Source: a virus
Direction: 5' to 3' (one strand)
IMG/VR virus record: IMGVR_UViG_3300042923_000607
Span: 1-64,000 of that record
DNA length: 64,000 bases
The number at the start of each line of letters is the position of its first letter. Position 1 is the stretch's first letter. The notes below the pieces were generated by a model that was given only the letters and a program-made list of their open reading frames with translations, did not search any database and was not told the DNA's origin. Of the stretch, positions 1 to 34,915 are shown one piece after another. A program made the position numbers and the translations under genes.

Positions 1-361
1 TTTCACCTTCTGTTAATTCAACCCAATCATTAGCCTCATTGCATTGCCCGTGGCAATCATCTTCATACAAGCAGCCATTACATCCCATATTACTCTCCCT
101 TCTAACCTCACAATCAAATTTAACTTTCATTTACTTATTTAAGTAATATATTCTTTGCTACTTCAAACCCCTTATGCCAACCAATATTTATTCCAATCAT
201 GAACGAAATCCCTATCCCAAAAATCAACAGGATAATTATAAAAATATAGTAAAAATTAGAATTATCTTTGTTCACACCTTACTCCTTTCATTCGTTGTTA
301 TGTTCTATATGTTATGTACTAAAAACCTATGCTATCTGGAACTATTTCTTAGTTCTCTTTA

Positions 362-390
362 ATAATAGCACAGGTTTTATCTTCTGTCAA
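362..390 (-). promoter_or_regulatory. sigmaA-type promoter
   Basis: TTGACA-17nt-TATTAT with extended TG; ACATATAAAACA motif at 392-403 immediately upstream. Confidence 0.75.
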
Positions 391-415
391 TTGTTTTATA
401 TGTTATTTAGTAAAA

Positions 416-667
416 TTATTTCACTACTTTCATTCCTAGAGAAATCGCTTCTTCTAACCACTCTGAATATTCGCTTTTTGATATGCTAGGTCTACCCTCG
501 CTCAAATTCACTACATAATCACGACGTGGCAAGAGATCCCGGTAAATCGTCTGATATTTCAAAGAGCCATCTATTTCAGCCATGGCTACAGCGTCCTCTT
601 CAGAGGCGGCTTCTATTTCCCATATCTGCACGAAATGACCATACTGCTTAGATACATTAAATTTCAT
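416..667 (-). CDS. hypothetical protein
   Basis: 83-aa ORF with GAGGTG RBS, in operon orientation. Confidence 0.75.
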   Translation of the reverse strand: MKFNVSKQYGHFVQIWEIEAASEEDAVAMAEIDGSLKYQTIYRDLLPRRDYVVNLSEGRPSISKSEYSEWLEEAISLGMKVVK

Positions 668-681
668 TTAATCACACCACC

Positions 682-1212
682 TCATTTTAATAAATATCGT
701 ATGTAATACTGCATTACTCCTAGAATATAAATAGGGGAATAGGATTTATCCTTAATAAACATAATTTGCAAATCATATTTAATATTAAAACTGTGGAGAG
801 AGGCGAGAAAGCTTTTCTTGTTATAATCTGTATTATAGTTTCCTTTTACCAAATCTTCGTAAGTTGCGTTTTCAATAAGTAAATGTTTCCTTTTAGCATA
901 TGACGTTGCAAATTCATCATTAAATCTTACCCTTGTTTGAGTAAAACATCCCGATAATTCCTCAAGGGAATTTTTCCTTTCCAGTATTACGTCATTATAA
1001 AATATCATATCATTATAAATGCCCAAATCAGGATTTTTTGGAAGTTTTGCGCTATAGTCTCCACACGGCAATGCAATTTTTTCATATGGAACTTTATGCT
1101 TATCGTAATATTGCGTCACATGGTCTTGCTTTTCTCTGGTATCTACTAAAATGACAATTGATTTAATGAGTTCATTCATTTCTGAATCAGTGTACTTTAT
1201 TCTATTTAGCAT
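682..1212 (-). CDS. ERCC4/XPF-domain nuclease (putative junction resolvase)
   Basis: VDTREK, GDYS and ERKxSLxEL motifs. Confidence 0.85.
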   Translation of the reverse strand: MLNRIKYTDSEMNELIKSIVILVDTREKQDHVTQYYDKHKVPYEKIALPCGDYSAKLPKNPDLGIYNDMIFYNDVILERKNSLEELSGCFTQTRVRFNDEFATSYAKRKHLLIENATYEDLVKGNYNTDYNKKSFLASLHSFNIKYDLQIMFIKDKSYSPIYILGVMQYYIRYLLK

Positions 1213-3575: not shown

Positions 3576-5468
3576 TTATTCAAATGGTAGTTCTTTAGTA
3601 TTTGGATAGTGTATTTTATTTTCGTATGTTGCTTTATCCCAAGCGTATTTTCTGTCAAACTCTGTTTCATTGGTATAGAATCGTCTTGACTTATTATCAT
3701 AAAACATTCCAACTTCTAAGCCTTCTCTTCCTCGTAATCTGTCTTTTAAAACATCTAAGATAACATCAAATTTTACTGGGTTTTTTATATCTTCTTTTTC
3801 CTTTTTCTGAACTCTATACAAGCTGAAAAGTCTATGTGCTAAGTCAACCGAAGTGCCCATTCCTTGAACATCAAATTTAGTTAATCTTCTCATTGTATCA
3901 ATCTTTTTCGGATGAATTACCAAAAACACTACAACGTGGTATTTTCTTGCAAAAGATATCAACCAATTTATTAAATCTACTTGTTTTTGCCATTTTGAAT
4001 CATCCGTACAAGATAGATTTAGACTTGACATATTATCTAAAATGAATAATTTACACCCAAACTTTCTAACACAGTCTTCCATTGATTTTTTTATATCTTC
4101 TATATCATTTGTACATTCATCTTTATACAGATAGAAATGTTTTTTATAAAATTCGCTTATACTTTTTTTTGCTTCTTTTTTTACGGTATAATATGTACTA
4201 CCAAAAGCATTACTATGTTCATCAACATTTCTCGATCCAGCAAATATTGAGTCTATCCAATTTTTAGTAAGATAATTTGGCATTTCTCCAGAATACATCC
4301 ACACATCTTTACCTTGATCTATGGAATTGCAAGTTAGTTGTCCTAAAAAACTAGATTTTCCTCCCCCATTAACACCTGTTAAAATATTAAATGTTCCATA
4401 AAAAAGTCTCATTAATTCCCTATCAAGTGTTTCAATTCCAGTTGTAATTCCATCAATTGTTGAAATATCAATATCATCAACATCTGAAAAATCAATTACA
4501 GAATCTACGGGTGTATCTTTTGCATTTAAAATCATATTCATAACAAAACTCTTACCAAAAGCTTGTAGAGTATCGTTCATATCTTTAATTGGGATTCTTG
4601 TTCCCTTATCTGTAATTTTTTCTTTTGGATATTCTATATATTTTGTTCTCCAAGATCCCAATCTATAAATACATTCTTTACGCATTTTAGTACCAGCGTC
4701 ATCATTGTCAGAGGCTATGATTATATTATCAAATTGTTCTAACCACTCCCAATTTTCCTCTATCCAATGAAAATCATGTGCACCAAATGGAATTGATACG
4801 GTATTAAAATAGCCCGATTCTATAGCGGAGGCAGCATCTCCTTCCCCTTCTATAATCAACAACGGATAGTTTGGATTCACCCTATTCATATTGAATAATA
4901 AATGTATTTTATCGGAATCTCCCTGCTTCCAGTTTTTTGCTTCTCCTTTATCTAAACTTCTAGAAGGTCTGTATTTAATCATGGTTAACACATCATTAGC
5001 ATCATAATATCGAAATACGGTGTTTGAATAAGTGTCACTTCCAAAATTAAGATAATCCAATGTGTCCTTTGATAATCCCCTTTTCGCCCAGTACTCATAT
5101 ACTTTAGCCATGTCTCCGCTTTCATCTTTCGGATATCTAAATTGCGTTTTAGTCTTTACATCCTTCTCTCCAAAAGAATAACTTATTTCTGCGTACTCAA
5201 ACAGTTTTTGAATAGCTGATAAAAATGTGTTGCCTTTCTGAAGTAAAACATCTATTAAATCAATATTTTGACCACATCCAAAACAATGAAAGCAGTAATG
5301 TTTTTTATCATAAATAAAACTCGGTGTTTTTTCTCCATGAAAAGGACATAAAGCTTTTAAATTCTTTTCGTCAAATCCTTCTAGGTTTAATAATTCTGCT
5401 ATCAGTGTTGCATTTTTATCACCCAACTTTTCTTTAGCCTGTTCAATCAGTTCTTTGTCTATTATCAA
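3576..5468 (-). CDS. Bifunctional primase-helicase (CHC2 Zn finger, TOPRIM, SF4 helicase)
   Basis: CPFHxEKTPSF...CFGC, IIEGEGD, DNDDAG, Walker A GVNGGGKS, ILDN, VIHPKK; TTG start at 5468 chosen from the upstream GAAGGAG RBS. Confidence 0.92.
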   Translation of the reverse strand: MIIDKELIEQAKEKLGDKNATLIAELLNLEGFDEKNLKALCPFHGEKTPSFIYDKKHYCFHCFGCGQNIDLIDVLLQKGNTFLSAIQKLFEYAEISYSFGEKDVKTKTQFRYPKDESGDMAKVYEYWAKRGLSKDTLDYLNFGSDTYSNTVFRYYDANDVLTMIKYRPSRSLDKGEAKNWKQGDSDKIHLLFNMNRVNPNYPLLIIEGEGDAASAIESGYFNTVSIPFGAHDFHWIEENWEWLEQFDNIIIASDNDDAGTKMRKECIYRLGSWRTKYIEYPKEKITDKGTRIPIKDMNDTLQAFGKSFVMNMILNAKDTPVDSVIDFSDVDDIDISTIDGITTGIETLDRELMRLFYGTFNILTGVNGGGKSSFLGQLTCNSIDQGKDVWMYSGEMPNYLTKNWIDSIFAGSRNVDEHSNAFGSTYYTVKKEAKKSISEFYKKHFYLYKDECTNDIEDIKKSMEDCVRKFGCKLFILDNMSSLNLSCTDDSKWQKQVDLINWLISFARKYHVVVFLVIHPKKIDTMRRLTKFDVQGMGTSVDLAHRLFSLYRVQKKEKEDIKNPVKFDVILDVLKDRLRGREGLEVGMFYDNKSRRFYTNETEFDRKYAWDKATYENKIHYPNTKELPFE

Positions 5469-5832
5469 ACTTATCTTCTCCTTCATTCCACAACTTGAAT
5501 ATGAGTTTATTTTTTGGTAAATAGTGAAGTGCATATGGTGAATTAATCTTTACTTTTTTCTTAACAATGTAATTCAATGCGAACAGCATATAGTCTGGAT
5601 TAATTTTCTTAGTAAACACTATATTATTTAAAACACTCGTCAACTGAACAAATTCGGCGTTTTCATCTATTTTTTCATAATATAAATCTTTCATCTGTTC
5701 TATTTTTCTATGTATTGCCGCACAGTCCGCATGATATCTTCTCGTTCCAACTGTTACAGCTTCTTCTTGTTTCACCTTTTCACCTTTATGTAAACAATGC
5801 CTATATCCACAAACATAAGTCTTTTCACTCAT
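5443..5832 (-). CDS. hypothetical replication-module protein with N-terminal Cys/His zinc finger
   Basis: CGYRHC...YHADC; sits between exonuclease and primase. Confidence 0.7.
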   Translation of the reverse strand: MSEKTYVCGYRHCLHKGEKVKQEEAVTVGTRRYHADCAAIHRKIEQMKDLYYEKIDENAEFVQLTSVLNNIVFTKKINPDYMLFALNYIVKKKVKINSPYALHYLPKNKLIFKLWNEGEDKFDNRQRTD

Positions 5833-5834
5833 TT

Positions 5835-6641
5835 TTACTCCTCATCATTGTTAAATTGTCGGTACTCGCAATTGTCACACACATCGCATAACATATAGCA
5901 ATTTACATAATTAACAAACGGATTAAAAGATTTGTCCTTATATATTTTTTTTATATTATCCAAAGCCCAGTTTTTAGCGTCTTCCAATTCTGCTTCATTA
6001 AATTCTATTCTGTGTCTTGTTTTATTTCTTGGGTAGTTCCATTCCAGGTATTTTGGATAAACCCCATATTTATCATAAATCGCTATACTGTAGAGATATA
6101 ATTGCCTCTTGTGATCTCGATATTCTTCTTCTTTGTTTTTTAAAACTCCCCCGCGTTTTCCTATCGGGGATTCTCCGCTTTTATGATCCCTTAAAACTAT
6201 AGCCATGTCTTTAGTGTTCTTATCTCTCAACAACACATCTATGTATCCGATAAAATTAAACTTACCTATAGTAAATTTAACTTCACCTTCAACCATTAGT
6301 ATTTCAAAGTCCTCGTCTTCCCATTCTAATGTGCTGAAGTAATCTACTCCTGCCATAAACAACTTCTCTTTTGTAGATTCTTTTATGTACGAAGTTACTT
6401 CAAAATCAAAATTTTCTATGTAATAATCAAGGCACTCTTGTTCGTTAAATTCGCGTTTGAAGTATTTTTCAAGAATGCTGTGAATAAATTTTCCGTACTC
6501 TGCATGAAATTTTCTTTCTTTTTTCACTTGCTCTATGTATATTAAGTAAAATTTATATGGACATCGAGTATAGGTTGATAACCTACTAAAACTCCACATC
6601 ATAGCATCTAATTCTTTTTTGTATTTACTCGCCATTGACAC
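5835..6641 (-). CDS. PD-(D/E)XK Cas4/RecB-like exonuclease
   Basis: WSFSRLxxYxxCP, GYIDV, DHKSG, QLYLY, C-terminal CxxxCxxCxxC cluster. Confidence 0.85.
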   Translation of the reverse strand: MSMASKYKKELDAMMWSFSRLSTYTRCPYKFYLIYIEQVKKERKFHAEYGKFIHSILEKYFKREFNEQECLDYYIENFDFEVTSYIKESTKEKLFMAGVDYFSTLEWEDEDFEILMVEGEVKFTIGKFNFIGYIDVLLRDKNTKDMAIVLRDHKSGESPIGKRGGVLKNKEEEYRDHKRQLYLYSIAIYDKYGVYPKYLEWNYPRNKTRHRIEFNEAELEDAKNWALDNIKKIYKDKSFNPFVNYVNCYMLCDVCDNCEYRQFNNDEE

Positions 6642-7171: not shown

Positions 7172-7819
7172 TTATTTTCTAAGTGATAATATTTTAGTTT
7201 TTAGCATCTTTAACTCTTCTGAGTCCTCGCACAACCTATAGTCTCCATTATATAATTCTGGTAAGTTATCGATACAAGTTTTCTGCAATAGTTTTTTAAC
7301 CTCTTCAGTACCCCCTAGGGTTACAATTTTCTTTGAGATTAATTCTTTAAGTTCATCTTGTAACTTCTCGACTAGTTTTACTTCCTGTGGCAGATCCTCT
7401 CCCTCATATATATAAATACCTATACCAAACGACGCACAGCATTTAGTTAAGCATCTAGCTATAGATTTTTGCACATCCGTCGAGGTTATCTTTGTCAGTG
7501 AGATACTTTGGTTTTTAAAATCCATAACTGCCAATTCTTGCGGTTGAGACAGTCCGTTTGCTGTTATTTCCACCTCTACCCAACATGTTCTTCCGTCTGT
7601 ATGATATGGAGTAAACTCTGGAACATAATAGGTTTCTTCCCCATAAGTAAACTGTAGATCTTTTTCGTTTTTTATGACTCTATATATAGCATCCGGATAT
7701 ATAGTTTTCATAAAGTTCCAAGCTGAAGCCCAGCTTAAATATTTAAGTTTATTCTTTTCTTTAACTTTATCATTTACGTTCAAATCTCTTGCTTGAATAA
7801 ATAAATTAGTTTCTGCCAT
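7172..7819 (-). CDS. Sak3/DUF1071-like single-strand annealing recombinase
   Basis: KNKLKYLSWASAW...VMDFKN...RCLTKCCASFGIGIYIYEGEDLP; next to ssb and exonuclease. Confidence 0.85.
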   Translation of the reverse strand: MAETNLFIQARDLNVNDKVKEKNKLKYLSWASAWNFMKTIYPDAIYRVIKNEKDLQFTYGEETYYVPEFTPYHTDGRTCWVEVEITANGLSQPQELAVMDFKNQSISLTKITSTDVQKSIARCLTKCCASFGIGIYIYEGEDLPQEVKLVEKLQDELKELISKKIVTLGGTEEVKKLLQKTCIDNLPELYNGDYRLCEDSEELKMLKTKILSLRK

Positions 7820-7852
7820 AAAACTCCTTTCACGATAAAAAGCCGATTTGGT

Positions 7853-8875: not shown

Positions 8876-8903
8876 ATTGTGAATAAAAGCCTTGTTTTAT
8901 CTA

Positions 8904-9529: not shown

Positions 9530-9577
9530 ATTACTTCTCCTTTCTAATTGTGCGTCAAACGGCAATTTTATTTTGAA

Positions 9578-10826: not shown

Positions 10827-10875
10827 GTTTCACCTCCATTTTGCAAACCAAACTTTGATTTTATGCATATTTTAG

Positions 10876-11967: not shown

Positions 11968-12011
11968 ATTTTCTCCTCTCATTTTCAAAACAAAACACCT
12001 GTTTTATATAA

Positions 12012-12200: not shown

Positions 12201-12241
12201 TTAATACCACCTTTCTGTATAAAATATCACTTTGATATTGA

Positions 12242-12679
12242 TTATCTTTCTAATCCTTTAAAAACTAACCCTCTATATCGTGGTAATTCAAGAATTTTAT
12301 TATAAATCCTTAAAACATCATTTGCAAAATTACTTCCACCCATCTGTGGGGTAACTGAATATTCGTCTATTGCTGATTTAAGAATATTTTCGTTATAGTA
12401 TTTATCATTGGCCTTACACCACTTTAAAATTGCATATCCGATACCATACAAATTTGCATCATGAAAAAACCATTTCGCTATTTCTTTATTTTTTAATTTT
12501 TCTATATAGTCAATTGCTTTGTCATAATCCGTAAAATTATTTCCATTTATTCTAACAATATTATCATTATTAGTTACAGATTTTAGTTTTTCCATGGCGC
12601 CATCCAATGCTGTTGCCTCCTCTACTGCTGATTTGATAATATCTGTTAAAATTTTGATTTCGTCAATCTTGTTATTCAT
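12242..12679 (-). CDS. hypothetical protein
   Basis: ORF with AAGGAG RBS between sites 12219 and 12711. Confidence 0.7.
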   Translation of the reverse strand: MNNKIDEIKILTDIIKSAVEEATALDGAMEKLKSVTNNDNIVRINGNNFTDYDKAIDYIEKLKNKEIAKWFFHDANLYGIGYAILKWCKANDKYYNENILKSAIDEYSVTPQMGGSNFANDVLRIYNKILELPRYRGLVFKGLER

Positions 12680-12916: not shown

Positions 12917-12999
12917 ATCATTTCCCTCCTGCTATGAATTTTAGGTAAGGACATAAATGTCATAACCAAAAATCTAATTTTCAAAATAAAATGCCTCTT

Positions 13000-13551
13000 T
13001 TATCCTCTTATGAATTCTCTAAATTTTGAATACGATCCAAATTTCTCTTTCCACCCTGCAACAATTTCGGTAGGATTAAGGCTAAATTCCTTACAAACAT
13101 ATGTAATGTACTCATTTTCGTACAATTTCTTTCTTCTTTTGTTAAGGGCTTTTACTTCCGCGAATACTACATCTCTACTAATCTTATATTCCTTTTCTAG
13201 ATATTTACTTAAATCATACTGAGAATACTCGATAAATTGACATATAGGGCAAACACATTCTGGAACCTCATAATACCCCCCGTCTGAGGCTAATTCCATC
13301 AATTCTTCATTTTCTAGTTCATTAAGTTCTGCTTCTGTTTTTTTGTTATATTCTGATTCTAATATAATCTGTATAAGCTCTTTTGAATCAACTTCCAAAG
13401 CTTCGTCAATGCAAAAAATATGACCATTTACACATTCCATCATTTCACATTCACGTAAACTGATATCCCATCCGCTCTCTTCTCTACCACAAATTTCACA
13501 TACATAACTTGAACTACTACTATTAGTAACAAAATCTCTCCTAAATTTCAT
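13000..13551 (-). CDS. TNSSSSS-motif protein 4 (Cys-rich, putative radical SAM substrate)
   Basis: MKFRRDFVTNSSSSSYV then CEIC, CxNGHxFC, CVCPIC; GGAGG RBS. Confidence 0.85.
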   Translation of the reverse strand: MKFRRDFVTNSSSSSYVCEICGREESGWDISLRECEMMECVNGHIFCIDEALEVDSKELIQIILESEYNKKTEAELNELENEELMELASDGGYYEVPECVCPICQFIEYSQYDLSKYLEKEYKISRDVVFAEVKALNKRRKKLYENEYITYVCKEFSLNPTEIVAGWKEKFGSYSKFREFIRG

Positions 13552-13552
13552 A

Positions 13553-13984
13553 TTATTCATCCTCCAATATAATAAAGTTTTCTTTATCTTCTGCTAATGA
13601 ATTAATCATGTTAGAACAGTAAGTATCATTATAGTCAACACTTTTACATAAAATTTTATAACCATTATTTAATGCTTCAATTGCCTTGTTATATTTATTA
13701 GTTAAATAATCATCATCTTCAAGAATCTTATCAATTGTATTTGCTTTACTCCACCCATAATTTTCTACTATATACTGGTTGTATTCTTCTATGCTTGAAA
13801 ATTTTTCACCTTCATCCGTATCATTATCTCCTGCTGTAAACAAAACTTTTTCAATTAGTTTTCCATAGTTTTTTAAGAATGGATATTTATTTAACGTTTC
13901 ATCATCAAAAGTTGGCAAATCCCGATAAGCAATTATATAGCTGCTACTACTCGAATTGGTAACAAAGTCTGTTCTAATCTTCAT
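13553..13984 (-). CDS. TNSSSSS-motif protein 3
   Basis: MKIRTDFVTNSSSSSYII N-terminus; acidic body. Confidence 0.85.
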   Translation of the reverse strand: MKIRTDFVTNSSSSSYIIAYRDLPTFDDETLNKYPFLKNYGKLIEKVLFTAGDNDTDEGEKFSSIEEYNQYIVENYGWSKANTIDKILEDDDYLTNKYNKAIEALNNGYKILCKSVDYNDTYCSNMINSLAEDKENFIILEDE

Positions 13985-13986
13985 AA

Positions 13987-14388
13987 TCAACCATTCCTTC
14001 CTGACCCTTGCTCAATGTTTAAATCAAATCCTTTTAGCCCGTTTAATTTATTTGATACGTATTCATAATGTTCATCTACATCTTCTTCTATAACTTCACC
14101 ATCTTCATCTGCCTCAACATCCGTGTAATTACTATAAATAAAATATAGTTTATCTTCGACAATTTCTTGTTTATCTTGAAATGGATCTACCCAACACCAA
14201 TCATCACAGGTATTCTCATAACGTAAATTCTCATAATCGTCTAATAACTCTTTACCAGTCATTACATAAGATGACAATTTATTTTCTTCTGCGCTTTTTA
14301 GTGCTATTTCATTATCTGTAGCTATCCCAAATACTGCAATAAAACTACTGCTAGAACTGTTAGTTACAAAATCTGTACGAATTTTCAT
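13987..14388 (-). CDS. TNSSSSS-motif protein 2
   Basis: MKIRTDFVTNSSSSSFIA N-terminus; very acidic body ending GSGRNG. Confidence 0.85.
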   Translation of the reverse strand: MKIRTDFVTNSSSSSFIAVFGIATDNEIALKSAEENKLSSYVMTGKELLDDYENLRYENTCDDWCWVDPFQDKQEIVEDKLYFIYSNYTDVEADEDGEVIEEDVDEHYEYVSNKLNGLKGFDLNIEQGSGRNG

Positions 14389-14396
14389 TTATTATC

Positions 14397-14762
14397 CTAC
14401 CTTTCTATCTCTCCATAATCAAAAGAAACATCGTTATTGGTTATTTGTGTTACATATGTATCGTTAAATTTCTTTACAAGTTCATCCTTAATTTGTGTTA
14501 ATGTCTTTTCTGACAATTCCCTTTCACTTAAATCATATCCAATATAATTTAAATAACTCCCCTCGCCTACCGATGCAGTTAGATTTCCTTTTAGATTAAA
14601 ATCTTCCCAATTATTATTTTCTACGGCATCACTAAATTCATCCGAATTGTCATCTGGAAGACCATTTTCTTTGAGAATATCTTTGCTTAATTTATTATTA
14701 ATCCTTAAACAAATAAAACTAGAACTACTTGAATTAGTTACATAATCAATTCTTACTTTCAT
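14397..14762 (-). CDS. TNSSSSS-motif protein 1
   Basis: MKVRIDYVTNSSSSSFIC N-terminus; start overlaps the end of the radical SAM gene, AAAGGAG RBS. Confidence 0.85.
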   Translation of the reverse strand: MKVRIDYVTNSSSSSFICLRINNKLSKDILKENGLPDDNSDEFSDAVENNNWEDFNLKGNLTASVGEGSYLNYIGYDLSERELSEKTLTQIKDELVKKFNDTYVTQITNNDVSFDYGEIER

Positions 14763-15837
14763 ATAAATCTTTCTCCTTTCTATCACACAATACTATTTGT
14801 CTTCTAATTGGGCAACCACCCATACATTCATTTCTTTTACTACAATTCCCACATGAATTTCTAAAATGATCTCTAAAATCCTCAAACTGTTCACTATCCC
14901 ATGCGTTCTGAATTGAATCGTTTGATATATCATAAAACCATTTTAATTCCTGATTGTCAAATGAACACGGAATAGCTTTCATATCCGATGTAATATACAT
15001 TGACCATCTTCCGCCTTCACACGTATCAAAACTGTCTTGATTTATATTTTTTGTAAGATTAACTAATGCCGGAATCGTACAGCTATCAAATCCGATCTTG
15101 AAATTGAAATCTCCAGTATCTACAATTTCAAAGAATTCTTTCACTTTTGGACTATCCATTTTTAATACATTACTTTCTTGCCCTAATCCCACTGGTTTAT
15201 GTAATAAAAATATTATTGCATTAATTCCTTTTGGAAAATCATTTGTATTTAATCTTTCAATTGCTTCATCAATGGAATTATTGCCAAGTACATAATGAAT
15301 ATTAGTTTTAATACCTGCATTTAATAACATTTGAATTGCTTTATATGTATGTTCTTGACGATACCAACTAATCGCTACTGCTCCACAATACTTTTTACAG
15401 ATATTAATTATATTTTCTGTGAATCCTAAACCGGAAGAAGTAAAATTTGGAACAATTCTATTTTGCCTACAATATTTTAATATTTCCTCAAAATCCTCAT
15501 GTTGATCTACATCACCTCTGCCGCCTAAAGCTAACTGAAATGTTTTACCTTTACATTCATCAACAATTCTTTTGAAATTATCTAATGTCATATTCGGTAC
15601 TTTTGTTTTTAATCCGTTTTGATAACATTGGACTCCTGACTTTAAACACAATCCACTTGCTCCGTGTACACAATGTCCCATAACTCCAATATCAATTAAT
15701 TCTGGATATGAAGTCATAAATGGGTCTTTTCCTGTGTCTTTGCCATTCTCTATTACTCCGCTTCTCATATAAAACCCCGTATCTGGATTAAACAATGAGA
15801 TAAATTTATTCTTTTTGTCTACCTTTTTAATATTAAT
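14746..15837 (-). CDS. Radical SAM/SPASM-domain enzyme
   Basis: PELIDIGVMGHC-x7-C-x6-CYQ, ALGGRGD, NFTSSG, AISW; SPASM CEGGR...PCSF...CxxCx5Cx3CP; frame open back to an ATT at 15837 after AGGAG. Confidence 0.9.
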   Translation of the reverse strand: MNIKKVDKKNKFISLFNPDTGFYMRSGVIENGKDTGKDPFMTSYPELIDIGVMGHCVHGASGLCLKSGVQCYQNGLKTKVPNMTLDNFKRIVDECKGKTFQLALGGRGDVDQHEDFEEILKYCRQNRIVPNFTSSGLGFTENIINICKKYCGAVAISWYRQEHTYKAIQMLLNAGIKTNIHYVLGNNSIDEAIERLNTNDFPKGINAIIFLLHKPVGLGQESNVLKMDSPKVKEFFEIVDTGDFNFKIGFDSCTIPALVNLTKNINQDSFDTCEGGRWSMYITSDMKAIPCSFDNQELKWFYDISNDSIQNAWDSEQFEDFRDHFRNSCGNCSKRNECMGGCPIRRQIVLCDRKEKDLYESKN

Positions 15838-15882
15838 TTAAATCACTCCTTTCTAAATCAAAACCAAACAAACATTCTATTT

Positions 15883-17034: not shown

Positions 17035-17076
17035 GATTTCACCACCTTTCACTATCAAATATGTCTTTGCTGTTGA

Positions 17077-17508: not shown

Positions 17509-17530
17509 AAACGTCCTTTCAGTATCAAAA

Positions 17531-17767
17531 TTAGTTTTTATGCAATCTTTCTATTTCATCCTCAAGCTCTCCTAGTCGCTGTACAGCTTCGTATATCGCG
17601 CAACTATTACAGTGCTCTACAGGTTGACTCTCACAATACAGATTGCACCATTCATCATTCATTTTAATTAATCCATAACCTGAAGACTCTAATCTAGTCA
17701 ATCTGTTAATTCTATTTCTATTTTTCATTACCTCTAAATCATATTTTTCTTTGTCTCTTTCAACCAT
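17531..17767 (-). CDS. hypothetical phage protein
   Basis: RLT...C..C...C..C...EAVQRLGELED pattern common in Clostridia phages. Confidence 0.65.
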   Translation of the reverse strand: MVERDKEKYDLEVMKNRNRINRLTRLESSGYGLIKMNDEWCNLYCESQPVEHCNSCAIYEAVQRLGELEDEIERLHKN

Positions 17768-17977: not shown

Positions 17978-18009
17978 CTCCTTTCCAATTTCAATACCAA
18001 ACCCATATT

Positions 18010-18774
18010 TTATGCTCTTACTAGTTTAAATCCCAAATTATCCGTATATGTAACCATACCTAATGAAATTAAATAATCTACAACTGTCTTAGCTCCCTCA
18101 TAAGTCCACTCAAAAGTTACATCTTCTTTCTCTTCTTTTGTATTTGGATCGGTATAGGGATTAATCTTTTCTATTATTAACTTTGTATTTGGATACTTTC
18201 TCAAGAAATCTTCTTTTATTTGAGATGTTTTAGTATAAACTCCAGCCTTTTTAAGATTCGCTGCTAACGTTTGTGGTTTTGTATCTAATTTAGTTGCTAA
18301 TTGTGTTTTTGAAAGTCTTTCATTAGTATCGCATAAAAATCTTTTGTACCTATCTACTTCTTCAAGGAGCTTTTCATTTTCACCTAATTGTTCAATTAAT
18401 TGTATTAATGCATCTTTATATGTAGAGGGAATCATTCTTGTGCTTTGTCTTTTTATATGATCTTCCATTTTATTAAATGCTTCGATAAAATCCAACTTCC
18501 ATCTCAGAGCTTCCTTACCGGTAAACCCCATAGCCAGCAAAGAAAATCCATCCCTAGTTAATTCAAACATTGGATATTCTTGATTATTTTGATCATTAAC
18601 ATAGTATCTTTCTTTAAATAGGTGTGCACAATTTTGAGCAGACCCCAGTTCATCTATTATTTTTCTAATGTCTCGAATAACATTCCGGTGTTCTTTGTTA
18701 AACTTCTCAGCCACATATCTGCTGTCGGTTAATACTTCTCCATTCATTTCTTTTAATATTATTTTATTTTCCAT
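18010..18774 (-). CDS. rha: Rha family phage regulatory protein
   Basis: TDSRYVAEKFNKEHRNVIRDI...LTRDGFSLLAMGFTGKEALRWKLDFIEAFNKME. Confidence 0.9.
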   Translation of the reverse strand: MENKIILKEMNGEVLTDSRYVAEKFNKEHRNVIRDIRKIIDELGSAQNCAHLFKERYYVNDQNNQEYPMFELTRDGFSLLAMGFTGKEALRWKLDFIEAFNKMEDHIKRQSTRMIPSTYKDALIQLIEQLGENEKLLEEVDRYKRFLCDTNERLSKTQLATKLDTKPQTLAANLKKAGVYTKTSQIKEDFLRKYPNTKLIIEKINPYTDPNTKEEKEDVTFEWTYEGAKTVVDYLISLGMVTYTDNLGFKLVRA

Positions 18775-19042
18775 ATAACTTCCTTTCTGAATCAAAAATT
18801 CCTTTTATTCTTATTTTCTTCTTATTTTTATCTTGTCGGTAATACAGGTGATCGTAGATATTCCTATAACTCCCATACAAATTAATTCAACATAAGGCTT
18901 CAGCACATAATAATAGTTCATACAATATCCTCTCTTTCATTAAATTTATTTTCCTTATAATCACTCTCCATTTCTTTATCTTTTATGTGATTTATACATT
19001 TTAAGCATTCATCAGTATCTTCGTATGGACATCGGTCGCAAC

Positions 19043-20407: not shown

Positions 20408-21394
20408 TTAAAACAAATCTATAAAATCTTTAAGTCTATATCTCAACATTCTCATTGCTATTTTTGAACCAAATTCTTCTATATATTGCTGTGTTTCTTT
20501 TTCATAAACATATTCGTGCCCTGATTTCTCTGTGAACACCTGTTTAAGCGTAACCCCATTTAACTCATGTTTTTGCTTAATAAAATTTATTAATCCATTC
20601 AAATAAAGGTTCCCACAATTAATCATTTTATTTCCAATTATTCTTTGAATGTCTCTGTATTTAGACATTATAATAGTGTTACTTGCTCCTGACGCTGCTG
20701 ATTTTTTGCCTGCTGACTTGATAATATATTTGCTTTCGGCATATAGTCTTGACTCTTTATAATTACGAGCTTCTTCTATTCCTTCAGGATGATACCATGT
20801 TTCTTTTTCTGCTTTTTTTAATATTTGTATAAATGTATCATCAACTCTAGCCACTCGACCATTAACCAAAGTAATTGCTTTTTCATCTTCATTCAAATCA
20901 GATAATTTTAGTCCCAATATTTCTTCATATGAATTACCCCATATCCCTATATAGGGTGAATATAATAATAATTTAATCACATAATCATCAAAAATATCCA
21001 TATAGTCCTGTATCGTTTCAAGTGGTATATATTTTTCTTGAATTATTTCAATTGGAATAACGTCGTCTATTATAGATTTTGAAAAATTTATTGCGTAATA
21101 ATTTTTAACATTTTTCCCATCAATAAATCCTTCTTGTAAACAAAATAAAAAATACCTATTAAAATAGAAACATACAAGCGTCAGATAATTCTTTGATGTC
21201 GCATTAAAATATTTGAGCAACCTATACACCTGAGTAGAGTTGAACATTGATAAATCTGAATTTTCATCTATCTCGATAGTTTCTGCTCTTTTAAACATTC
21301 TTTCCACTGTAAATTTAACTTGATCGTCATAATTACAGTAGTCGCTTTCTATAAATCGTTCCTTTAGTTTTCTAGACTCTTCTATATTAAACAT
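20408..21394 (-). CDS. MrpR/YopR-like lytic-cycle repressor (integrase-like fold, catalytic residues absent)
   Basis: 328 aa; FKRAETIE...DLSMFN, LLLYSPYIGIWG...EEILGLKLSDL, NLYLNGLINFIK; no R/HxxR/Y tetrad; directly downstream of a YopQ-like gene. Confidence 0.7.
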   Translation of the reverse strand: MFNIEESRKLKERFIESDYCNYDDQVKFTVERMFKRAETIEIDENSDLSMFNSTQVYRLLKYFNATSKNYLTLVCFYFNRYFLFCLQEGFIDGKNVKNYYAINFSKSIIDDVIPIEIIQEKYIPLETIQDYMDIFDDYVIKLLLYSPYIGIWGNSYEEILGLKLSDLNEDEKAITLVNGRVARVDDTFIQILKKAEKETWYHPEGIEEARNYKESRLYAESKYIIKSAGKKSAASGASNTIIMSKYRDIQRIIGNKMINCGNLYLNGLINFIKQKHELNGVTLKQVFTEKSGHEYVYEKETQQYIEEFGSKIAMRMLRYRLKDFIDLF

Positions 21395-21396
21395 TG

Positions 21397-22647
21397 TTAT
21401 CTCACCCCTTCAATAATCTTGTCTAATTCGTTCATTTGTGTTTTAGTTGGCTTATTCGCTATTTTAAGATTTTGCATGTAGTCTTTAAATGAATTTAGCT
21501 CTATCAGTTTTTCAAAATCATACTCTTTTATTATTAATTTATTTATAATATAGATATATGTGAACCAATCCTCTTTGCTCAGTGAAGATTTTTTCTTGTC
21601 ATGAGCTATTAAGTAATTTAAATTATCAGAAATAATTTCATAAATTTCGAATTGATTATCCTTATTTACATCCATTATTTTTTTTATAATTTCATAGATA
21701 TAAACATTTAACTTGCTATCAATAGTACCTTTTAGCCTGGATCTGGTTGAAGTGTTTAACTTATTTATTATATACGAGATTGGATCTGAGCCACTAATCC
21801 TTATAGATTGAGACTTTGATAAGTGTGTCTTTCTGTCCATTTGATATATATAATCTCTTGCTTTTTCAGTATCGAAAAATGTCAAATAATAATCACACGG
21901 ATAATTCCAATCCTGATTATTCCTTTTAACCGCCAGTTTCGATTCATGGTTATGGAATCCATCAATTAAATCAAGTTTTAATTCTTTTGGAATTATTAAA
22001 TCTCCGTCTTTTATTAATACCGTATTTCCGCCATTTATTTCTGGATTTATATTTATTGTTCCTATTGTGGGGAATTGAGTCAGGTCTTGCATGCCATTTT
22101 TAATTTCCTTCAAGGCCGTCTTGTTTAGATTAAGTTTAACAATCGGTACCCCGTCATTCTCTACAATTATTAAATCTCTTTGAGTGTCAGGATTGTATCT
22201 TAGCTTATTATAAAAATCCCATTTCTCAACTTCATTTACATCGGTATGAATAAATATATAGTCGTATGGATATATGTTCACTCTAAACCAATTACCAGAT
22301 TTTATTACAATGTCAAAATCTTCTTCTCCTTTGTCTGACATTATCCTTTTACCATATTCTTCTTTCTCAAGTTCATAAAAATATGAATCTTCGTTTAGAG
22401 CTCCGGAGTTTATCCTATCGTCACTAATAGAAACCTTCTTAATTGATTTCATTAACTTATATAACATGTGGTAAGGCAAAGTCTCAACTCTGAGTATTCC
22501 ATTGAAAATATCAATTGTCTTGTCGTACCCCACGTTATAATCTTCTTTCAGGGAGTACTCGATTTCTCTTCGGACTGTTCTAGGTAGCTTATTAATGATT
22601 GCTATTTGCCTCATTAATTCCTCTCGTAGTGCTTTATCGTCTTTCAT
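21397..22647 (-). CDS. YopQ/DndB-like (DGQHR/ParB-like) protein
   Basis: YNPDTQR and LIDGFH motifs; ATG at 22647 with AGGAGG RBS. Confidence 0.65.
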   Translation of the reverse strand: MKDDKALREELMRQIAIINKLPRTVRREIEYSLKEDYNVGYDKTIDIFNGILRVETLPYHMLYKLMKSIKKVSISDDRINSGALNEDSYFYELEKEEYGKRIMSDKGEEDFDIVIKSGNWFRVNIYPYDYIFIHTDVNEVEKWDFYNKLRYNPDTQRDLIIVENDGVPIVKLNLNKTALKEIKNGMQDLTQFPTIGTININPEINGGNTVLIKDGDLIIPKELKLDLIDGFHNHESKLAVKRNNQDWNYPCDYYLTFFDTEKARDYIYQMDRKTHLSKSQSIRISGSDPISYIINKLNTSTRSRLKGTIDSKLNVYIYEIIKKIMDVNKDNQFEIYEIISDNLNYLIAHDKKKSSLSKEDWFTYIYIINKLIIKEYDFEKLIELNSFKDYMQNLKIANKPTKTQMNELDKIIEGVR

Positions 22648-22683
22648 ACTTATTCCTCCTACGAACAAATATAATATATTTAC

Positions 22684-22712
22684 ATAATAGCATTTATACA
22701 TAAATTTGTCAA
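22684..22712 (-). promoter_or_regulatory. sigmaA-type promoter for the yopQ/mrpR-like pair
   Basis: TTGACA-17nt-TATTAT with extended TG. Confidence 0.75.
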
Positions 22713-22732
22713 TATGTTGTTATATATTTTGT

Positions 22733-23140
22733 TTAGGCAAAAGAAAATTGACTTTTATTATCAATTATAAAACGCACACTTTTCTTAGGGAGTATTTGGA
22801 TCGCTAATCCATTATCAATCATATCCATATCATAGGAATGCATTTCTCCTATTTTTTCTTTTATAAAACGCTTATCTATAGAATCTACACTTTCACATAA
22901 AGCTATACTTTCCTCTGGCAGCTCCGTATAACTTATATGTATGTGCGTAGAAAGATTATTCTTTGTCATTTTTGTTGTTAGTGGAACATACTGTACTCTA
23001 TTGCAATATTTATTGTTTGCATCATTTGATACAATTACGCATGGTCTACAACCAGCCTGTTTGTTGGGATCAGTAATCACCTTTGGAATATCAATATAAA
23101 ATATATCTCCTCTTTTAAGTAACATATTATTCTCTTTCAT
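22733..23140 (-). CDS. PemK/MazF family endoribonuclease
   Basis: KRGDIFYID...QAGCRPCVIVSNDxxN...VPLTT...SIALCE...IDK. Confidence 0.9.
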   Translation of the reverse strand: MKENNMLLKRGDIFYIDIPKVITDPNKQAGCRPCVIVSNDANNKYCNRVQYVPLTTKMTKNNLSTHIHISYTELPEESIALCESVDSIDKRFIKEKIGEMHSYDMDMIDNGLAIQILPKKSVRFIIDNKSQFSFA

Positions 23141-23824: not shown

Positions 23825-23901
23825 GTCTTAATTCAAACAAATCTACTGTTTAAATATTCCATTTATAATTTAGTTCCTTAATATAAAATTCTCATTTTAT
23901 G

Positions 23902-24635: not shown

Positions 24636-24680
24636 TATGTACCACTCCTTTCTACTTTTAGCATAAAATTTAAGTTTCAT

Positions 24681-24917: not shown

Positions 24918-25171
24918 TTCTATGTAAAATTACTTTTTTATTTGCAATATATTATTTTCGTAGACTAAATTCTGCTCGTAAATAAGTACTTGCCTCGGCA
25001 ACAAAAACACCTTCTACTGAATCATCTTCATATACTTTCTTTAGTTTTGTTATTGCGAAACCACTATCCTCAGCTTCTATTTCAACTTCATATTCATAAA
25101 TTTCTCTTACAATTCCTCTGTATTTTTCCATAAATACACCTCTTTATTATATTTTAACGTATTTATTAGTG

Positions 25172-26173: not shown

Positions 26174-26218
26174 GTAAAATCTCCTTTCCTATATCTATAA
26201 AATCTCTGTTTGGCTCAC

Positions 26219-26451: not shown

Positions 26452-27192
26452 TTATAATATAACATCTTCATAATACTGTTTTACCCATTCACCCTCAATT
26501 CCAGCGTACCTAAGTGTTATTTGAGGTGAACTATGTCCTAACATCTCTTGTATTACTGACAAGAACATAGCATCATTTTTGTGTGCCATAAGCTGCTGAT
26601 ATGCCCACGTCTTTCTTAGGGAGTGAGTCCCAATGTTTACCTTAATGTTACACTCTTTCGCAGCCTGTTTCAAGACTTTATTTAATGATTTTACTTCAAT
26701 GTGCCCCCCCTGTGAACTAGGGAATATATAGTCATCTAATTTAATTTCTTCCTTGTGACCAATGGTATAGTTTGCTACATATGATTTGAACCCGGTGTTA
26801 AAATACAGGTCACGATAGTTTTTGGTTTTTTGCTCTTTTATTCTGTAAAAATCTTTTACTTCAAGATTATCCGTAAGTACATCACCCCATGTTAATCTCA
26901 ATAAATCTCCGGCTCGTAACGCTATGTTTAATCCCATATTAAAACAAAGCAGATGCTTCTCCCACACCTCTTTATGAAAATCTCTCTCTCCATTTTCTAT
27001 CTTATTAGTAAAATACAGTTTCATAATCATTATTTCTTCTTTTGTTTTAAGTGGATATACGGTATGAGCCTTACCTTCTATGGAATTACTTCTGGTTCTC
27101 TTTGGCGTACCATCTTTTTTTAATTTCTTAGAGGCTCTAAAGTTATAAATCTTACAATCTTCTGCTTGCTTTGGTCTATATGCTAATTCCAT
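26452..27192 (-). CDS. Tyrosine recombinase, catalytic domain only
   Basis: ALRAGDL (R), EQKT (K), THSLRKT (HxxR), LGHSS (H), TLRY (Y); only about 70 aa precede the catalytic domain. Confidence 0.93.
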   Translation of the reverse strand: MELAYRPKQAEDCKIYNFRASKKLKKDGTPKRTRSNSIEGKAHTVYPLKTKEEIMIMKLYFTNKIENGERDFHKEVWEKHLLCFNMGLNIALRAGDLLRLTWGDVLTDNLEVKDFYRIKEQKTKNYRDLYFNTGFKSYVANYTIGHKEEIKLDDYIFPSSQGGHIEVKSLNKVLKQAAKECNIKVNIGTHSLRKTWAYQQLMAHKNDAMFLSVIQEMLGHSSPQITLRYAGIEGEWVKQYYEDVIL

Positions 27193-28079: not shown

Positions 28080-28117
28080 CTGTAAATCCCCCTTTCTAGG
28101 TAAAACAATCTTTTTAT

Positions 28118-28345: not shown

Positions 28346-28391
28346 TAAAATAATCCTTTCTGTTCCAAATGACTGTTTTATATTGTTTCTA

Positions 28392-28715: not shown

Positions 28716-28967
28716 ATTATTCTATCCTTTCTACAGACCAATTTCCGATTTTCATCAATAATTTACATTATCACTAATAGAATGTACTCTAAACTTTTCA
28801 TCTGCTTCTGCAATTTTTGAAGCTTCTACAAAGTTTTCTGCTTCAATAATCCATCCACAGGATGCCCATCTTCCCTCTACATATGACATACCACTTACAT
28901 AAAAATGTTTATTATTATCCACGCTTTTATCTCCTCTCTTTTCTGCTCCAAATCAGCATTTTATCTG

Positions 28968-29351: not shown

Positions 29352-29404
29352 ATTATTCTCCTTTCGTCACTCTTAGTAACTATCAAATAAGTATTTGCTG
29401 CATA

Positions 29405-31185: not shown

Positions 31186-31239
31186 TTCCTTTCTGTTTTT
31201 TTATTTACTTCTGCACCAAAGAATTGTTTCATATGGTTC

Positions 31240-32844: not shown

Positions 32845-33132
32845 TTTCTATACGTTCCATAACAATGGATATCAATTTGTTCCATGCTTCTTTTTTATTG
32901 TGTTCTTTCTGTTGTTCTGTAAGTTTAATATTTTTATTCATCTGTTTGAATCCTTTCAAAATCTTTATAAAAGAGTACTTTTATGTTGCTTGTGTTTGAT
33001 ATTACTATTAATTATTACATTTAATCCGTACGTCCCAAGATAATTCTATTTCAATCATGCGGCTGTCCTCCTGTTTAAATGTATTATTTACTGTATCAGC
33101 TACTAACATACTTTTAATTCCTTTCCGCCTGT

Positions 33133-33321
33133 TTAGGCTATATAATCCGTATCTGCCATATCAGATATATTTGGTGTTTGTTTTATAGATTCTAACTCTC
33201 TCGTAAAACCACTTTTAATCATAATTGCATACGCTAATATTAAAGCATCGTCCTCATTGAAAGCTGAAGCGTATACTGTCTTAGCGTTCTTAAAAGTTAT
33301 AATATAATGATTGTGTTTCAT
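33133..33321 (-). CDS. hypothetical protein
   Basis: ORF with GAAAGGA RBS after site 33347. Confidence 0.65.
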   Translation of the reverse strand: MKHNHYIITFKNAKTVYASAFNEDDALILAYAIMIKSGFTRELESIKQTPNISDMADTDYIA

Positions 33322-33365
33322 ATTTTATATTCCTTTCTAATAGACTATAAATACATTCTTTTATT

Positions 33366-33659
33366 TTATACAGACATTGTTCCATCTGAATAATCATTCA
33401 CACATTCAAAGTAATCTTGATTACTCTCTCTGCTGTAATATTGTTCATACATACTTGTTTGACAACCTTCATCACCTAAATTGCAATTTCTGTTTATGTG
33501 ATTTGCACAAGTATCGCAATCTTTAATTAATGTATTTTCAATTTCTAAAAATCTATGTTGTTCTATATCTGTTAACTCTATTCCATTTTCTAATTTTATT
33601 TTTAAACTTGTTAATTCACCTATTAAATTTGATTTCTTTTCTATACTTAAACTATACAT
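33366..33659 (-). CDS. hypothetical protein
   Basis: ORF, Cys-containing. Confidence 0.65.
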   Translation of the reverse strand: MYSLSIEKKSNLIGELTSLKIKLENGIELTDIEQHRFLEIENTLIKDCDTCANHINRNCNLGDEGCQTSMYEQYYSRESNQDYFECVNDYSDGTMSV

Positions 33660-33707
33660 TATACCTACTTTCTAACGGTTTTAGTTTACCAATAACTAAG
33701 TAAAATC

Positions 33708-33941
33708 TTAATTTTGTTTGCTTAATTTGTTTATTTGTCTTGTATAATAACCTTTATCTCTTTTATCGTTTGCATGTTCACGACATATCATTAAATATTC
33801 GATATCATTCTCATGAATTGCAGTATGAACATTTTCAATTTTAAGTATTTCATTTAATAATGATATTTTCATTCTGTTAGATGTTTCACTATTCACGGTT
33901 GATACGGTTTTGTATGTTTCTTTTAATACCTTTATATTCAT
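33708..33941 (-). CDS. hypothetical protein
   Basis: ORF with GGAGGT RBS after site 33964. Confidence 0.65.
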   Translation of the reverse strand: MNIKVLKETYKTVSTVNSETSNRMKISLLNEILKIENVHTAIHENDIEYLMICREHANDKRDKGYYTRQINKLSKQN

Positions 33942-34915
33942 GCTTTACACCTCCAAAGTGTGAATAAAATGTTAGTTTTGTTTTGTTTTATCTATCTTTG
34001 TTCGCTTGACTATATGCACTGTATTCAGTATTATCCATGTTTGCATATTCAAAATAATTTGTAAATTGTAAATCGGTCATACTCATAAATTCATCATAAC
34101 AAAAATTATAATACTTTTCATCTTCGCTCATTGCTAAACCCTCCAATATTTGAATTTGTTTACTACGTTTTTTTGTGCCGAATCGTAGTTGCTCCGCCTA
34201 TAAGTTTAAACCTCATATAGTGGTTGGTCAATTGTAAAGCATAAAGACCAATGCTGTTATTATAGGAACTTTGTTTGTCACTCGTCAAAGTCAAGTTTTT
34301 AAAGACTTCAAACCTATAACAATGTAGATAAAATAGCTTGAATTACATTACTGCGTTTAATTGATCAATTTCTCTTTGTCTTGCTTGCCAATGCTCAATA
34401 TTTCTCAGTGTGCTATAGGCAATAATAAATTCCATCAGGCTAGTAAAAATATACTCAACCTCGTTATATGTTGCCTTGATTATGTTTCCATGTCTTTTAA
34501 TATTCTTCATATGTGGGTATCCTTTCCTGTTTCATTTATTAGTTATTCATGCAGACAATACTAATATTTTTCAATTATCAACTACCATTATTAAAGCGTT
34601 TACTATGTCCCGTTTGGCGGTGGTTCGTCATACTCTTGTAACTGTTTAATGTTTGTTATTCTTGTATTATCTGCATTCTATAATTAATAAATGTTTTATT
34701 TAGTGTTTACTGGCTTACACAAACGATTTTCACGTTTTATAGTTACCTGTCAAGATGCTATCTTGTAACCCTTCACTATTCCAGAATGGATTTAATTGTC
34801 ATTGTTCAAGTGCCGATAAATCTTTGAGGACTTATTGTTTACAGGTTGCTATTGCTTAAAACCCATTGTAGGAATTGCACCCACTAACTCGTTGCTAGAG
34901 CCACTATTAAGGTTG

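Follow-up and report, generated by a model that had tools for sequence, protein, structure and literature searches.

An 18-bp palindrome between genes of a large phage and of the SPbeta group is retained at boundaries of module replacement

The position of mosaic joints at gene boundaries of phage genomes has been explained by random illegitimate recombination with subsequent selection or by recombination at conserved linkers, and the question is a long-standing one. Several known systems place short repeated elements between genes. The attC sites of integrons are imperfect palindromes of 57-141 bp, which IntI recombines as folded single strands next to attI and Pc. The pdif sites of plasmids comprise 28 bp with 11-bp XerC and XerD arms resembling the dif site of the host, and the stoperators of cluster A mycobacteriophages are oriented with transcription. 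In engineered cassette exchange with heterospecific lox or FRT sites the arms are the same and the centres differ, an arrangement that would limit exchange to corresponding positions and guard a genome against internal deletions. The PeSL (promoter-early stem-loop) cassettes of T4-type phages are promoter-plus-terminator units that recombine with one another by homology and give mini-circles (Arbiol et al. 2010, PMC2839356). Here we report on another element of this kind in a stretch of 64,000 nucleotides of viral DNA (positions 1 to 64,000 of IMG/VR record IMGVR_UViG_3300042923_000607, referred to as the window), which makes up the leading 64 kb of one phage contig of 116,239 bp (G000) with a GC content of 31.5%. 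The element is an 18-bp dyad-symmetric motif, AYMAAA-N6-TTTKRT, with the perfect form ATAAAA-N6-TTTTAT, and the genome contains about 50 copies.

In the window we counted 17 copies of the strict pattern AYMAAANNNNNNTTTKRT, where 1.18 ± 1.08 would be expected, and none of 100 dinucleotide shuffles reached 17. A loose pattern had 21 matches with a 6-base spacer and 0-4 with spacers of 2-11. For graded scoring we used a symmetric half-site matrix with cut-offs of 11 or 12 bits. Because this matrix was derived from the sites that it scores, the spacer controls are the fair comparison. At 12 bits or more the genome contains 44 sites with N6, but 0-6 with the other spacers (2-12), and 5.1 ± 2.4 were found in 50 shuffles. 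In the region 113-33981, to which the initial annotation referred, 26 sites reach at least 11 bits, 23 of them mostly outside called genes, while spacers of 4, 5, 7 and 8 yielded 2, 5, 6 and 9. Genome-wide, 63 sites reach at least 11 bits. Although coding sequence makes up 82% of the genome, 47 of these are mostly intergenic, and the 16 inside genes compare with about 14 expected by chance. Genes were called with a crude open reading frame (ORF) caller of our own. By these calls a site is present in 47 of 187 gene junctions compared to 1-8 for the control spacers, and on the two minus-strand arms, where 97 junctions have a gap of 25 nt or more, in 40 of these. The expected enrichment between stop codon and ribosome-binding site was thus confirmed, and sites are not as frequent in genes as between them. 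A chance product of AT-rich composition, made up of TAA stops, A runs and U-rich leaders, could be suspected from the low GC content and from arms of pure A/T that overlap stop codons. Yet the spacing is specific and the shuffles fail to reproduce it, which refutes this explanation and leaves it a negligible probability.

The twelve sites that had been quoted as examples all read as written and score at least 11 bits. Among four further coordinates the site at 29382 passes, whereas those at 12711, 25896 and 27865 have one mismatch each in the AAA/TTT core and remain below 11 bits, so that 13 of 16 were recovered. Such one-mismatch copies are seen at many further junctions. As claimed earlier, the core replication genes are devoid of sites: none of at least 11 bits was found between 113 and 7835, the replication module, in which genes abut or overlap. 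The lysogeny module at 19.4-23.9 kb has none either, except for one match inside a gene. The centres of 52 out of 52 sites are distinct. As about 40% of random sets are equally so, this is uninformative.

On the coding strand the order of elements is stop codon, site, extended Shine-Dalgarno sequence and start codon. The upstream stop is at most 12 nt from the start of the site in 42 of 52 cases and coincides with the TAA inside ATAAAA in seven. The fourth base after the site is G, the first base of GAAAGG, in 32 of 52, and a Shine-Dalgarno core follows 5-13 nt past the site in 32 of 52. The strong Shine-Dalgarno sequence AGAAAGGAG has maximal complementarity to the 3' end of 16S rRNA. We read the order as a tight packing of an independent 18-bp element between its neighbours. 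The same regular distances would also suit a punctuation mark in the mRNA, i.e. an intercistronic processing, stability or translation signal beside AGAAAGGAG with an A-rich and a U-rich half. Yet well-formed sites also stand where no further gene follows, for instance at the convergent junction 84575 and, at 45292, 62023 and 80826, behind the final genes of late units. Furthermore, in 52 sites both halves follow one degenerate consensus and are mutually reverse complementary down to the minor variants. Position 1 is A and sometimes G, mirrored by T and sometimes C at position 18; position 2 is T, less often C, mirrored by A, less often G, at position 17; position 3 is A or C and never T, mirrored by T or G at position 16. 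Within the centre the first base avoids A and the last avoids T. Such mirroring would be meaningless on a single strand of RNA.

The arms do not covary, as the pairing of variable positions within a site was not above that in shuffles (P 0.25-1.0, 52 sites). The dyad is not extended by the flanks in the 52 sites of this genome, and nothing outside the 18 bp is conserved in 109 oriented sites. RNA folds of six sites are weak with -1.6 to -3.2 kcal/mol and z from -1.7 to +0.4, and the sites had no match in Rfam. A hairpin, either of RNA or of attC-like single-stranded DNA, was rejected because covariation, extended pairing and an Rfam family are missing and folds are weak; in this respect the view that the sites are not attC hairpins proved correct. 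Together with the mirrored variants and the sites without a following gene, these data render RNA punctuation very unlikely. Lack of covariation and weak RNA folds make the motif look like a duplex-DNA site for a putative symmetric protein reader. A promoter was also considered and rejected, since a Shine-Dalgarno sequence comes 3-12 nt behind the site, sites are found at convergent ends, and sigma-70 matches numbered 127 versus 120 expected. The sites are not among the promoter or terminator matches. Few consensus promoters or terminators are present in 7.8-27.8 kb, so that most sites are located inside operons, namely the long early and accessory ones.

The motif is not confined to this phage and recurs in SPbeta and numerous other large phages with the MrpR/YopQ lysogeny core. 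Bacillus phage SPbeta has 13 perfect copies with N6 and 0-1 with spacers of 2-11. They are located at gene ends and junctions, and the GenBank record annotates stem-loops over two of the 13. The complete records G012 and G013 contain 18 and 9 perfect sites. In IMG/VR and metagenome contigs that were reached via the RNA ligase the motif is present at lower density. A 19-base pattern of site plus Shine-Dalgarno sequence matched 56 IMG/VR stretches, many from contigs of 120-167 kb. These 451 kb contain 116 perfect N6 sites, 56 of them the seeds, against 0-3 at other spacers, in a sample biased by the choice of stretches through the seed, which lessens their weight for the interpretation given below. 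tblastx matches to SPbeta are found in 31 of the 56. In contrast, a 3.6-Mb Clostridium genome (G009) has 14 perfect sites, fewer than the 22 of the control pattern. The lack of enrichment indicates that the motif belongs to phages and makes the regulon of a host factor unlikely, an argument that speaks to a chromosomal factor with multiple sites. The phage studied here and SPbeta share little at the level of BLAST (10 ORFs by tblastn), and the motif does not vary even where the proteins that two phages have in common are 21-30% identical. This constancy fits a common currency better than a private operator. Nine centres are common to this phage and its relatives, about the number expected by chance, and all of them have unrelated flanks. 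The 18-mer at 33964 that recurs in G001 (Table 1) could be due to chance or could be a site that has lost both original neighbours. Our literature search, with the 1999 SPbeta genome paper outside its reach, found no published description of the palindrome. As a separate observation, a 17-nt leader, TAGARTAAAAATAAAAT, with two direct ATAAAA half-sites in it, immediately follows some palindromes and immediately precedes others (SPbeta 113682 and 132765; phi3T locus L051 7834 and 20967). With just three copies in SPbeta it was dismissed as a general feature of sites in this group.

The behaviour of the sites in related phages was deduced from alignments. The records G001 and G006, from the lineage of this phage, are 97-99% identical in blocks, and approximately 7 of 24 block ends are in or next to a site. 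One homology block starts at a site that differs in its left arm. Elsewhere 51 bp made up of a site and a ribosome-binding region form an island between unrelated genes, a 1.4-kb indel ends beside a site and two blocks end 1 and 15 nt past one. In SPbeta, phi3T, Goe13 and Goe11, compared over 25 kb, eight orthologous site groups keep their centre through at least 12 flank switches, the onset of which is 0-7 nt from the edge of the site. The TATTCC site has two left and three right variants, and the TCGGTC site with its 26-nt leader has three different upstream and four different downstream genes. Breakpoints in this region fall on 19 of 22 junctions with a site, compared to 80 of 177 others. 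In the population of this phage itself, all six partly matching variant contigs listed from three other sequencing runs break at most 10 nt from a site (8883, 9555, 9557, 9578, 10864 and 24676; four junctions), and the source run has a unitig branch at 11974-12003.

Over all sequences compared, junction pairs that were alike on one flank differed on the other in 38 of 48 cases when a site was present (10 alike on both) and in 48 of 90 when it was absent (42 alike on both; odds ratio 3.3), counts which are not independent and carry correspondingly less weight in favour of a role of the site. The fraction of pairs with a switch increased with site score from 0.43 (n = 51) over 0.57 (n = 14) and 0.76 (n = 21) to 0.81 (n = 47), and the trend was absent when the same matrix was used at spacers of 5 and 8. 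At sites with unequal arms (L003/L004, L031/L032 and positions 9554, 24663 and 11990) the outer bases of the arm belong to whichever flank has been swapped in, which places the joints inside the site. Taken together, the aligned genomes show that sites are enriched at module boundaries, are retained through replacements and are not needed for mosaicism. The initial annotation had expected breakpoints in relatives to coincide with sites; G001 and G006, the SPbeta group, the variant contigs and the dependence on score bear this out, yet 80 of the 99 junctions with a breakpoint in the SPbeta-group region are without a site.

Our interpretation, held tentatively and with slightly less than even confidence, is that the site itself is the place of exchange between copies with the same centre in related phages. 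We favour it because of the dose-response with site score and the constancy of the motif across phages with 21-30% identical proteins. A symmetric protein dimer would read the two 6-bp arms on duplex DNA. Upon an encounter of related phages, be it through co-infection or because one infects a lysogen of the other, same-centre copies would exchange and the DNA on one side would be replaced. The outcome would be an allelic replacement of modules and not a capture of circles in the manner of integrons. Two kinds of agent may be envisaged. A dedicated recombinase, which would account for about half of the explanation, has candidates in the additional proteins of tyrosine-recombinase fold that these phages encode, YopP and YomM of SPbeta and perhaps the recombinase encoded by 26452..27192. 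Alternatively, an annealase and an exonuclease (Sak and PD-(D/E)XK in this phage, Sak4 in SPbeta) could act on islands of 18-45 bp identity that consist of the site and the adjoining ribosome-binding region. The narrower proposition that a dedicated recombinase, plausibly of the orphan YopP/YomM type, swaps only palindromes of the same centre, gene by gene and by position, seems to us rather doubtful, with perhaps one chance in four. If it were true, accessory genes could be swapped without scrambling or deleting the phage's own genome, and the invariant arms would be a common currency in a very broad range of Firmicutes phages.

Several data weigh against an exchange at the site. Apart from the 80 breakpoint junctions that lack one, 43% of the pairs in the lowest score bin still switch. 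None of the 24 loose ends listed is at most 10 nt from a site, and no joint among the 15 listed, out of 19 in all, links one site to another, in an analysis of contigs only, which drop rare forms. The site after the stop codon of the RNA ligase is present in just 3 of 39 loci including this phage, though the downstream genes mostly differ. The hybrid Hyb2phi3Ts-SPbeta switches parents in 5050-6454 and 14589-19485, intervals that begin or end at sites. This result, for which phi3T stood in for phi3Ts, is uninformative because the switch intervals have no informative differences; moreover, crossing over in long identical stretches explains the phi3Ts x SPbeta hybrid. At the sequence level no candidate enzyme is common to this phage and SPbeta. 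With 6 bp each, the arms fall short of what a tyrosine recombinase normally uses, and conservation does not reach beyond the 18 bp. Finally, the packing of stop codon, site and Shine-Dalgarno sequence is so tight that any joint keeping the site must fall at its edge, and packing alone could thus place viable joints there.

The last point is central to a different explanation, in which a dimeric DNA-binding protein of the phage silences or insulates polycistronic early operons by means of the sites as operators or roadblocks, much as stoperators halt elongation in cluster A mycobacteriophages. The sites would mark the ends of autonomous modules, packing would force joints to their edges, and their role as hinges would be a by-product. 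We regard this as the main rival and as less likely than exchange at the site, with nearly one chance in three. A free centre within a palindromic consensus is what dimeric regulators typically show, and about 50 copies reside within operons that have few strong promoters or terminators. The lysogeny module is spared except for the one match inside a gene, and junctions without a site swap commonly, too. In addition, a repeated element to which MrpR binds, SPBRE, is already in use in this phage family (PMC10516654), and a similar 12- to 15-mer is present here. On the other hand, the motif is identical across phages with barely alignable regulators, whereas operators usually drift with their repressor. 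The climb of the switch fraction with site score also counts against it, and losing one of about 50 roadblocks should be near neutral, yet the sites persist through replacement of their flanks.

The regulators at hand are also at odds with the operator explanation. MrpR has the fold of a tyrosine recombinase minus the catalytic residues and binds the 15-bp SPBRE at ten promoters, and its ten reported chromatin affinity purification sequencing (ChAP-seq) peaks in SPbeta are all at SPBRE (PMC10516654), although weaker peaks at palindromes may exist besides. The Rha family, which provides the only DNA-binding protein with a BLAST match to SPbeta, was missing from all 10 other motif-bearing records, of which three are complete, and a Rha-type protein was therefore discarded as a reader of the site.

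The window does contain a lysogeny core of the SPbeta type at 20408-23140 with an MrpR-like protein (blastp E 5e-7 to YopR) and a YopQ-like protein (E 8e-5). The genes mrpR, yopQ and yopP are described as core genes of SPbeta-like phages (PMC10516654). A MazF/PemK-like gene is directly upstream in this core, with no antitoxin called, and no palindrome was found inside 20408-23140. The MrpR-like protein is the only one of this phage that has BLAST-level relatives in SPbeta, G012 and G013, all of which carry the motif; G012 and G013 also encode homologues of YopP, YomM, YopQ and YopR. We recovered the SPBRE core AATATGTATA upstream of nine out of ten MrpR-regulated genes of SPbeta. In the present phage a second motif, the ATAACATATA(A/G)AACA family, is located 5-25 nt before Shine-Dalgarno sequences and resembles the reverse complement of AATATGTATA. 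It is probably the operator set of the MrpR-like repressor. The counterpart of SPBRE in this phage is the ATAACATATAAAACA family, which is distinct from the 18-bp palindrome.

An integron-like capture was the initial annotation's proposal for the array, with the 246-aa recombinase inserting and excising single-gene circles at any site irrespective of its centre. The geometry of 6-bp arms around a 6-bp centre suits such a reaction, and the recombinase retains the HxxR, GH and Y motifs. Moreover, a 1,028-bp insertion in G006 has a near-copy of the site on either side, with centres TAACTA and GAACTA, where G001 has a single site (L110, G006:6900-8100), and a homologue of the gene 12242-12679 is on the opposite side of the ligase in locus L001. 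Yet the protein is neither an integron integrase nor a Xer equivalog. It scored 24 bits on TIGR02249, the integron integrase profile with a cut-off of 265, and 49-58 bits on Xer profiles with cut-offs of 220-335. Its homologues in five relatives are specific in G001 and G002, generic in G004 and absent in G003 and G005, and a search of bacterial genome contigs with it had no match. SPbeta, with its 13 perfect sites, has no specific homologue (best blastp E 0.09), so that the enzyme could not be upheld as the general one. The idea of recombination without identity of the overlap was not supported either: orthologous junctions keep their centre in every relative examined, neighbouring centres have 4.07 mismatches compared to 4.33 in random pairs, and the joints listed do not connect sites. 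Nor was the analogy to integrons supported: there is no attC-like fold, and no platform was found, although no search for a distinct primary site was made. A full-length tyrosine integrase with SAM-like N-terminal and catalytic domains is encoded elsewhere in the genome, at 85704-86954 (L111:1704-2954), adjoining the convergent junction of two arms. The 416-aa integrase reached 38 bits on TIGR02249 and 31 bits on NF011946 (cut-off 435). It probably is the real integrase of the phage, which leaves the 246-aa recombinase without an assigned role. In sum, we consider integron-like capture very improbable, a shade more so than RNA punctuation.

The 1,028-bp insertion of G006, which encodes a 259-aa protein with sub-threshold matches to AP2 and a treble-clef zinc finger, is the sole clear case of a site duplication. 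Duplication on insertion was dismissed as a general signature, because neighbouring centres are no more alike than random pairs. A further insertion of 1.5 kb in G006 compared to G001 (G006:8866-10358; L003 at about 1387-2879) is located between Shine-Dalgarno sequence and start codon with no palindrome at either end and may represent another kind of mobile insert.

The features of the window are compiled in Table 1. Genes are on the minus strand in 1-35.4 kb and in 84.6-116 kb and on the plus strand in between; by ORF calls every gene in 135-35422 is on the minus strand except for two doubtful ORFs. Pfam searches identified a family-B polymerase, a primase-helicase, a PD-(D/E)XK nuclease and a Sak annealase in 0.7-7.8 kb, and elsewhere in the window an RNA ligase, a SPASM enzyme, a Rha protein, an HNH endonuclease, a MazF-like toxin, the MrpR-like protein and the 246-aa tyrosine recombinase. 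Close relatives of the window were not found in the phage collection by megablast or by tblastn with a 553-aa late protein, and blastn returned short patches only. With the polymerase, a search of bacterial genome contigs yielded two loci, in Clostridium moutaii and in a Tissierellaceae bacterium, which are the nearest bacterial relatives. At 104245-107603 of the contig the anaerobic ribonucleotide reductase NrdD is encoded in two ORFs, the second with an intein bearing an HNH/NUMOD3 endonuclease; the intein-split anaerobic enzyme is a hint that the host is anaerobic. At 12986-15880 of the window a radical-SAM/SPASM gene is joined by the next four genes downstream in a tight operon with palindromes at both bounds, and palindromes at 80826 and 82363 of the contig are on either side of the gene that follows an 833-aa late protein. 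An N6/N4 DNA methylase is encoded at 89462-90334 of the contig. Its homologues are the commonest match of the proteins of this phage near seeded palindromes (6 of 56 stretches), and methylase genes also adjoin the site with the centre GATCAA in SPbeta and phi3T.

Table 1. Junction palindromes and selected genes of the window (G000, coordinates of the full phage contig)
Feature	Position	Strand	Remarks
Palindrome	113..130	.	ATCAAA-N6-TTTCAT, junction, 12.7 bits
Palindrome	7835..7852	.	junction, 13.4 bits; brackets the site-free replication module together with the site at 113
Palindrome	8883..8900	.	junction, perfect arms; match of a variant contig of run X3 ends exactly here
Palindrome	9554..9571	.	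junction behind the stop of the RNA ligase; divergence of variant contigs of run X2 at 9557 and of run X4 at 9555
Palindrome	10847..10864	.	junction; weaker overlapping register from 10842; match of a contig of run X4 ends at 10864
Palindrome	11990..12007	.	junction; unitig branch of run X1 at 11974-12003
Palindrome	12219..12236	.	junction
Palindrome	12986..13003	.	junction; arm contains stop codon of upstream gene
Palindrome	17054..17071	.	junction
Palindrome	17524..17541	.	junction, stop codon overlapped
Palindrome	17996..18013	.	junction; arm contains stop codon of Rha gene
Palindrome	18791..18808	.	junction
Palindrome	23883..23900	.	junction, perfect arms
Palindrome	24663..24680	.	junction; a contig of run X3 diverges at 24676
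Palindrome	24924..24941	.	junction
Palindrome	26197..26214	.	junction
Palindrome	28100..28117	.	junction
Palindrome	28364..28381	.	junction
Palindrome	28947..28964	.	junction
Palindrome	29382..29399	.	junction
Palindrome	31215..31232	.	junction
Palindrome	32967..32984	.	junction, perfect arms
Palindrome	33700..33717	.	junction, stop codon overlapped
Palindrome	33964..33981	.	junction, centre TGTTAG; same 18-mer at G001:12489-12506, flanks unrelated on both sides
Palindrome	45292..45309	.	perfect, at stop codon of plus-strand gene, late arm
Palindrome	60304..60321	.	plus-strand junction, Shine-Dalgarno sequence next
Palindrome	62023..62040	.	perfect, at stop codon of plus-strand gene
PD-(D/E)XK nuclease	5835..6641	-	likely partner of Sak
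Sak single-strand annealing protein	7172..7819	-	could drive short-homology exchange at conserved islands
MrpR-like protein	20408..21394	-	tyrosine-recombinase fold; MrpR_N_CB 39.4 bits
YopQ-like protein	21397..22701	-	MrpR partner in the SPbeta lysogeny core
246-aa tyrosine recombinase	26452..27192	-	Phage_integrase domain only; HxxR, GH and Y motifs present; candidate enzyme of the initial annotation
Second-motif copies			upstream of genes ending at 275, 8355, 16271 and 23140, and at G000 89404, 93829, 100297 and 100648

In a wide group of large temperate Firmicutes phages, many gene junctions thus bear one invariant 18-bp motif, and a better motif goes along with more swapping. Because the motif is present in SPbeta, a genetically tractable phage of B. 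subtilis with sequenced relatives and laboratory hybrids, the question of its role is directly testable. A dedicated enzyme would constitute a new kind of system for gene exchange. If a regulator binds the sites, a genome-wide control network would have been missed in a model phage.

Among known systems, integrons resemble the array in two respects: their sites stand at the 3' end of individual genes that mostly lack promoters and share one orientation, and conservation is limited to short inverted cores. In contrast to them, the palindromes lack a fold and an IntI, no platform was found, and the recombinase gene is located in the middle of the array. In design the palindromes resemble heterospecific lox or FRT sites, yet their centres are distinct only at the level of chance.

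The pdif sites and dif modules of Acinetobacter plasmids (Mindlin et al. 2019, PMC6449649) likewise occur in many copies with inverted arms and a 6-bp centre in accessory regions, where they flank adaptive genes. Here just the 6-bp arms are conserved, the phage has no recombinase of the XerC/XerD type by profile score, and the host-like genome G009 is not enriched. PeSL cassettes share with the palindromes that short repeated intergenic motifs lie among small non-essential genes and that indels and replacements between close relatives end there (PMC2839356). The palindromes differ in having 18 bp with 12 fixed bases, neither promoter nor hairpin, and centres of their own, and among the joints listed there were no circles or site-to-site connections.

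The closest parallels on the side of regulation are stoperators and SPBRE. Dozens of copies of one short, mostly intergenic motif in a temperate phage genome are also found in cluster A mycobacteriophages, whose stoperators are asymmetric and bound by a monomer (McGinnis et al. 2022, PMC9283540), whereas the palindromes are dyad-symmetric, the same in distant phages and enriched at swap points. SPBRE is a repeated intergenic element of the same phage family and differs from the palindrome in being a non-palindromic 15-mer at about ten promoters (PMC10516654).

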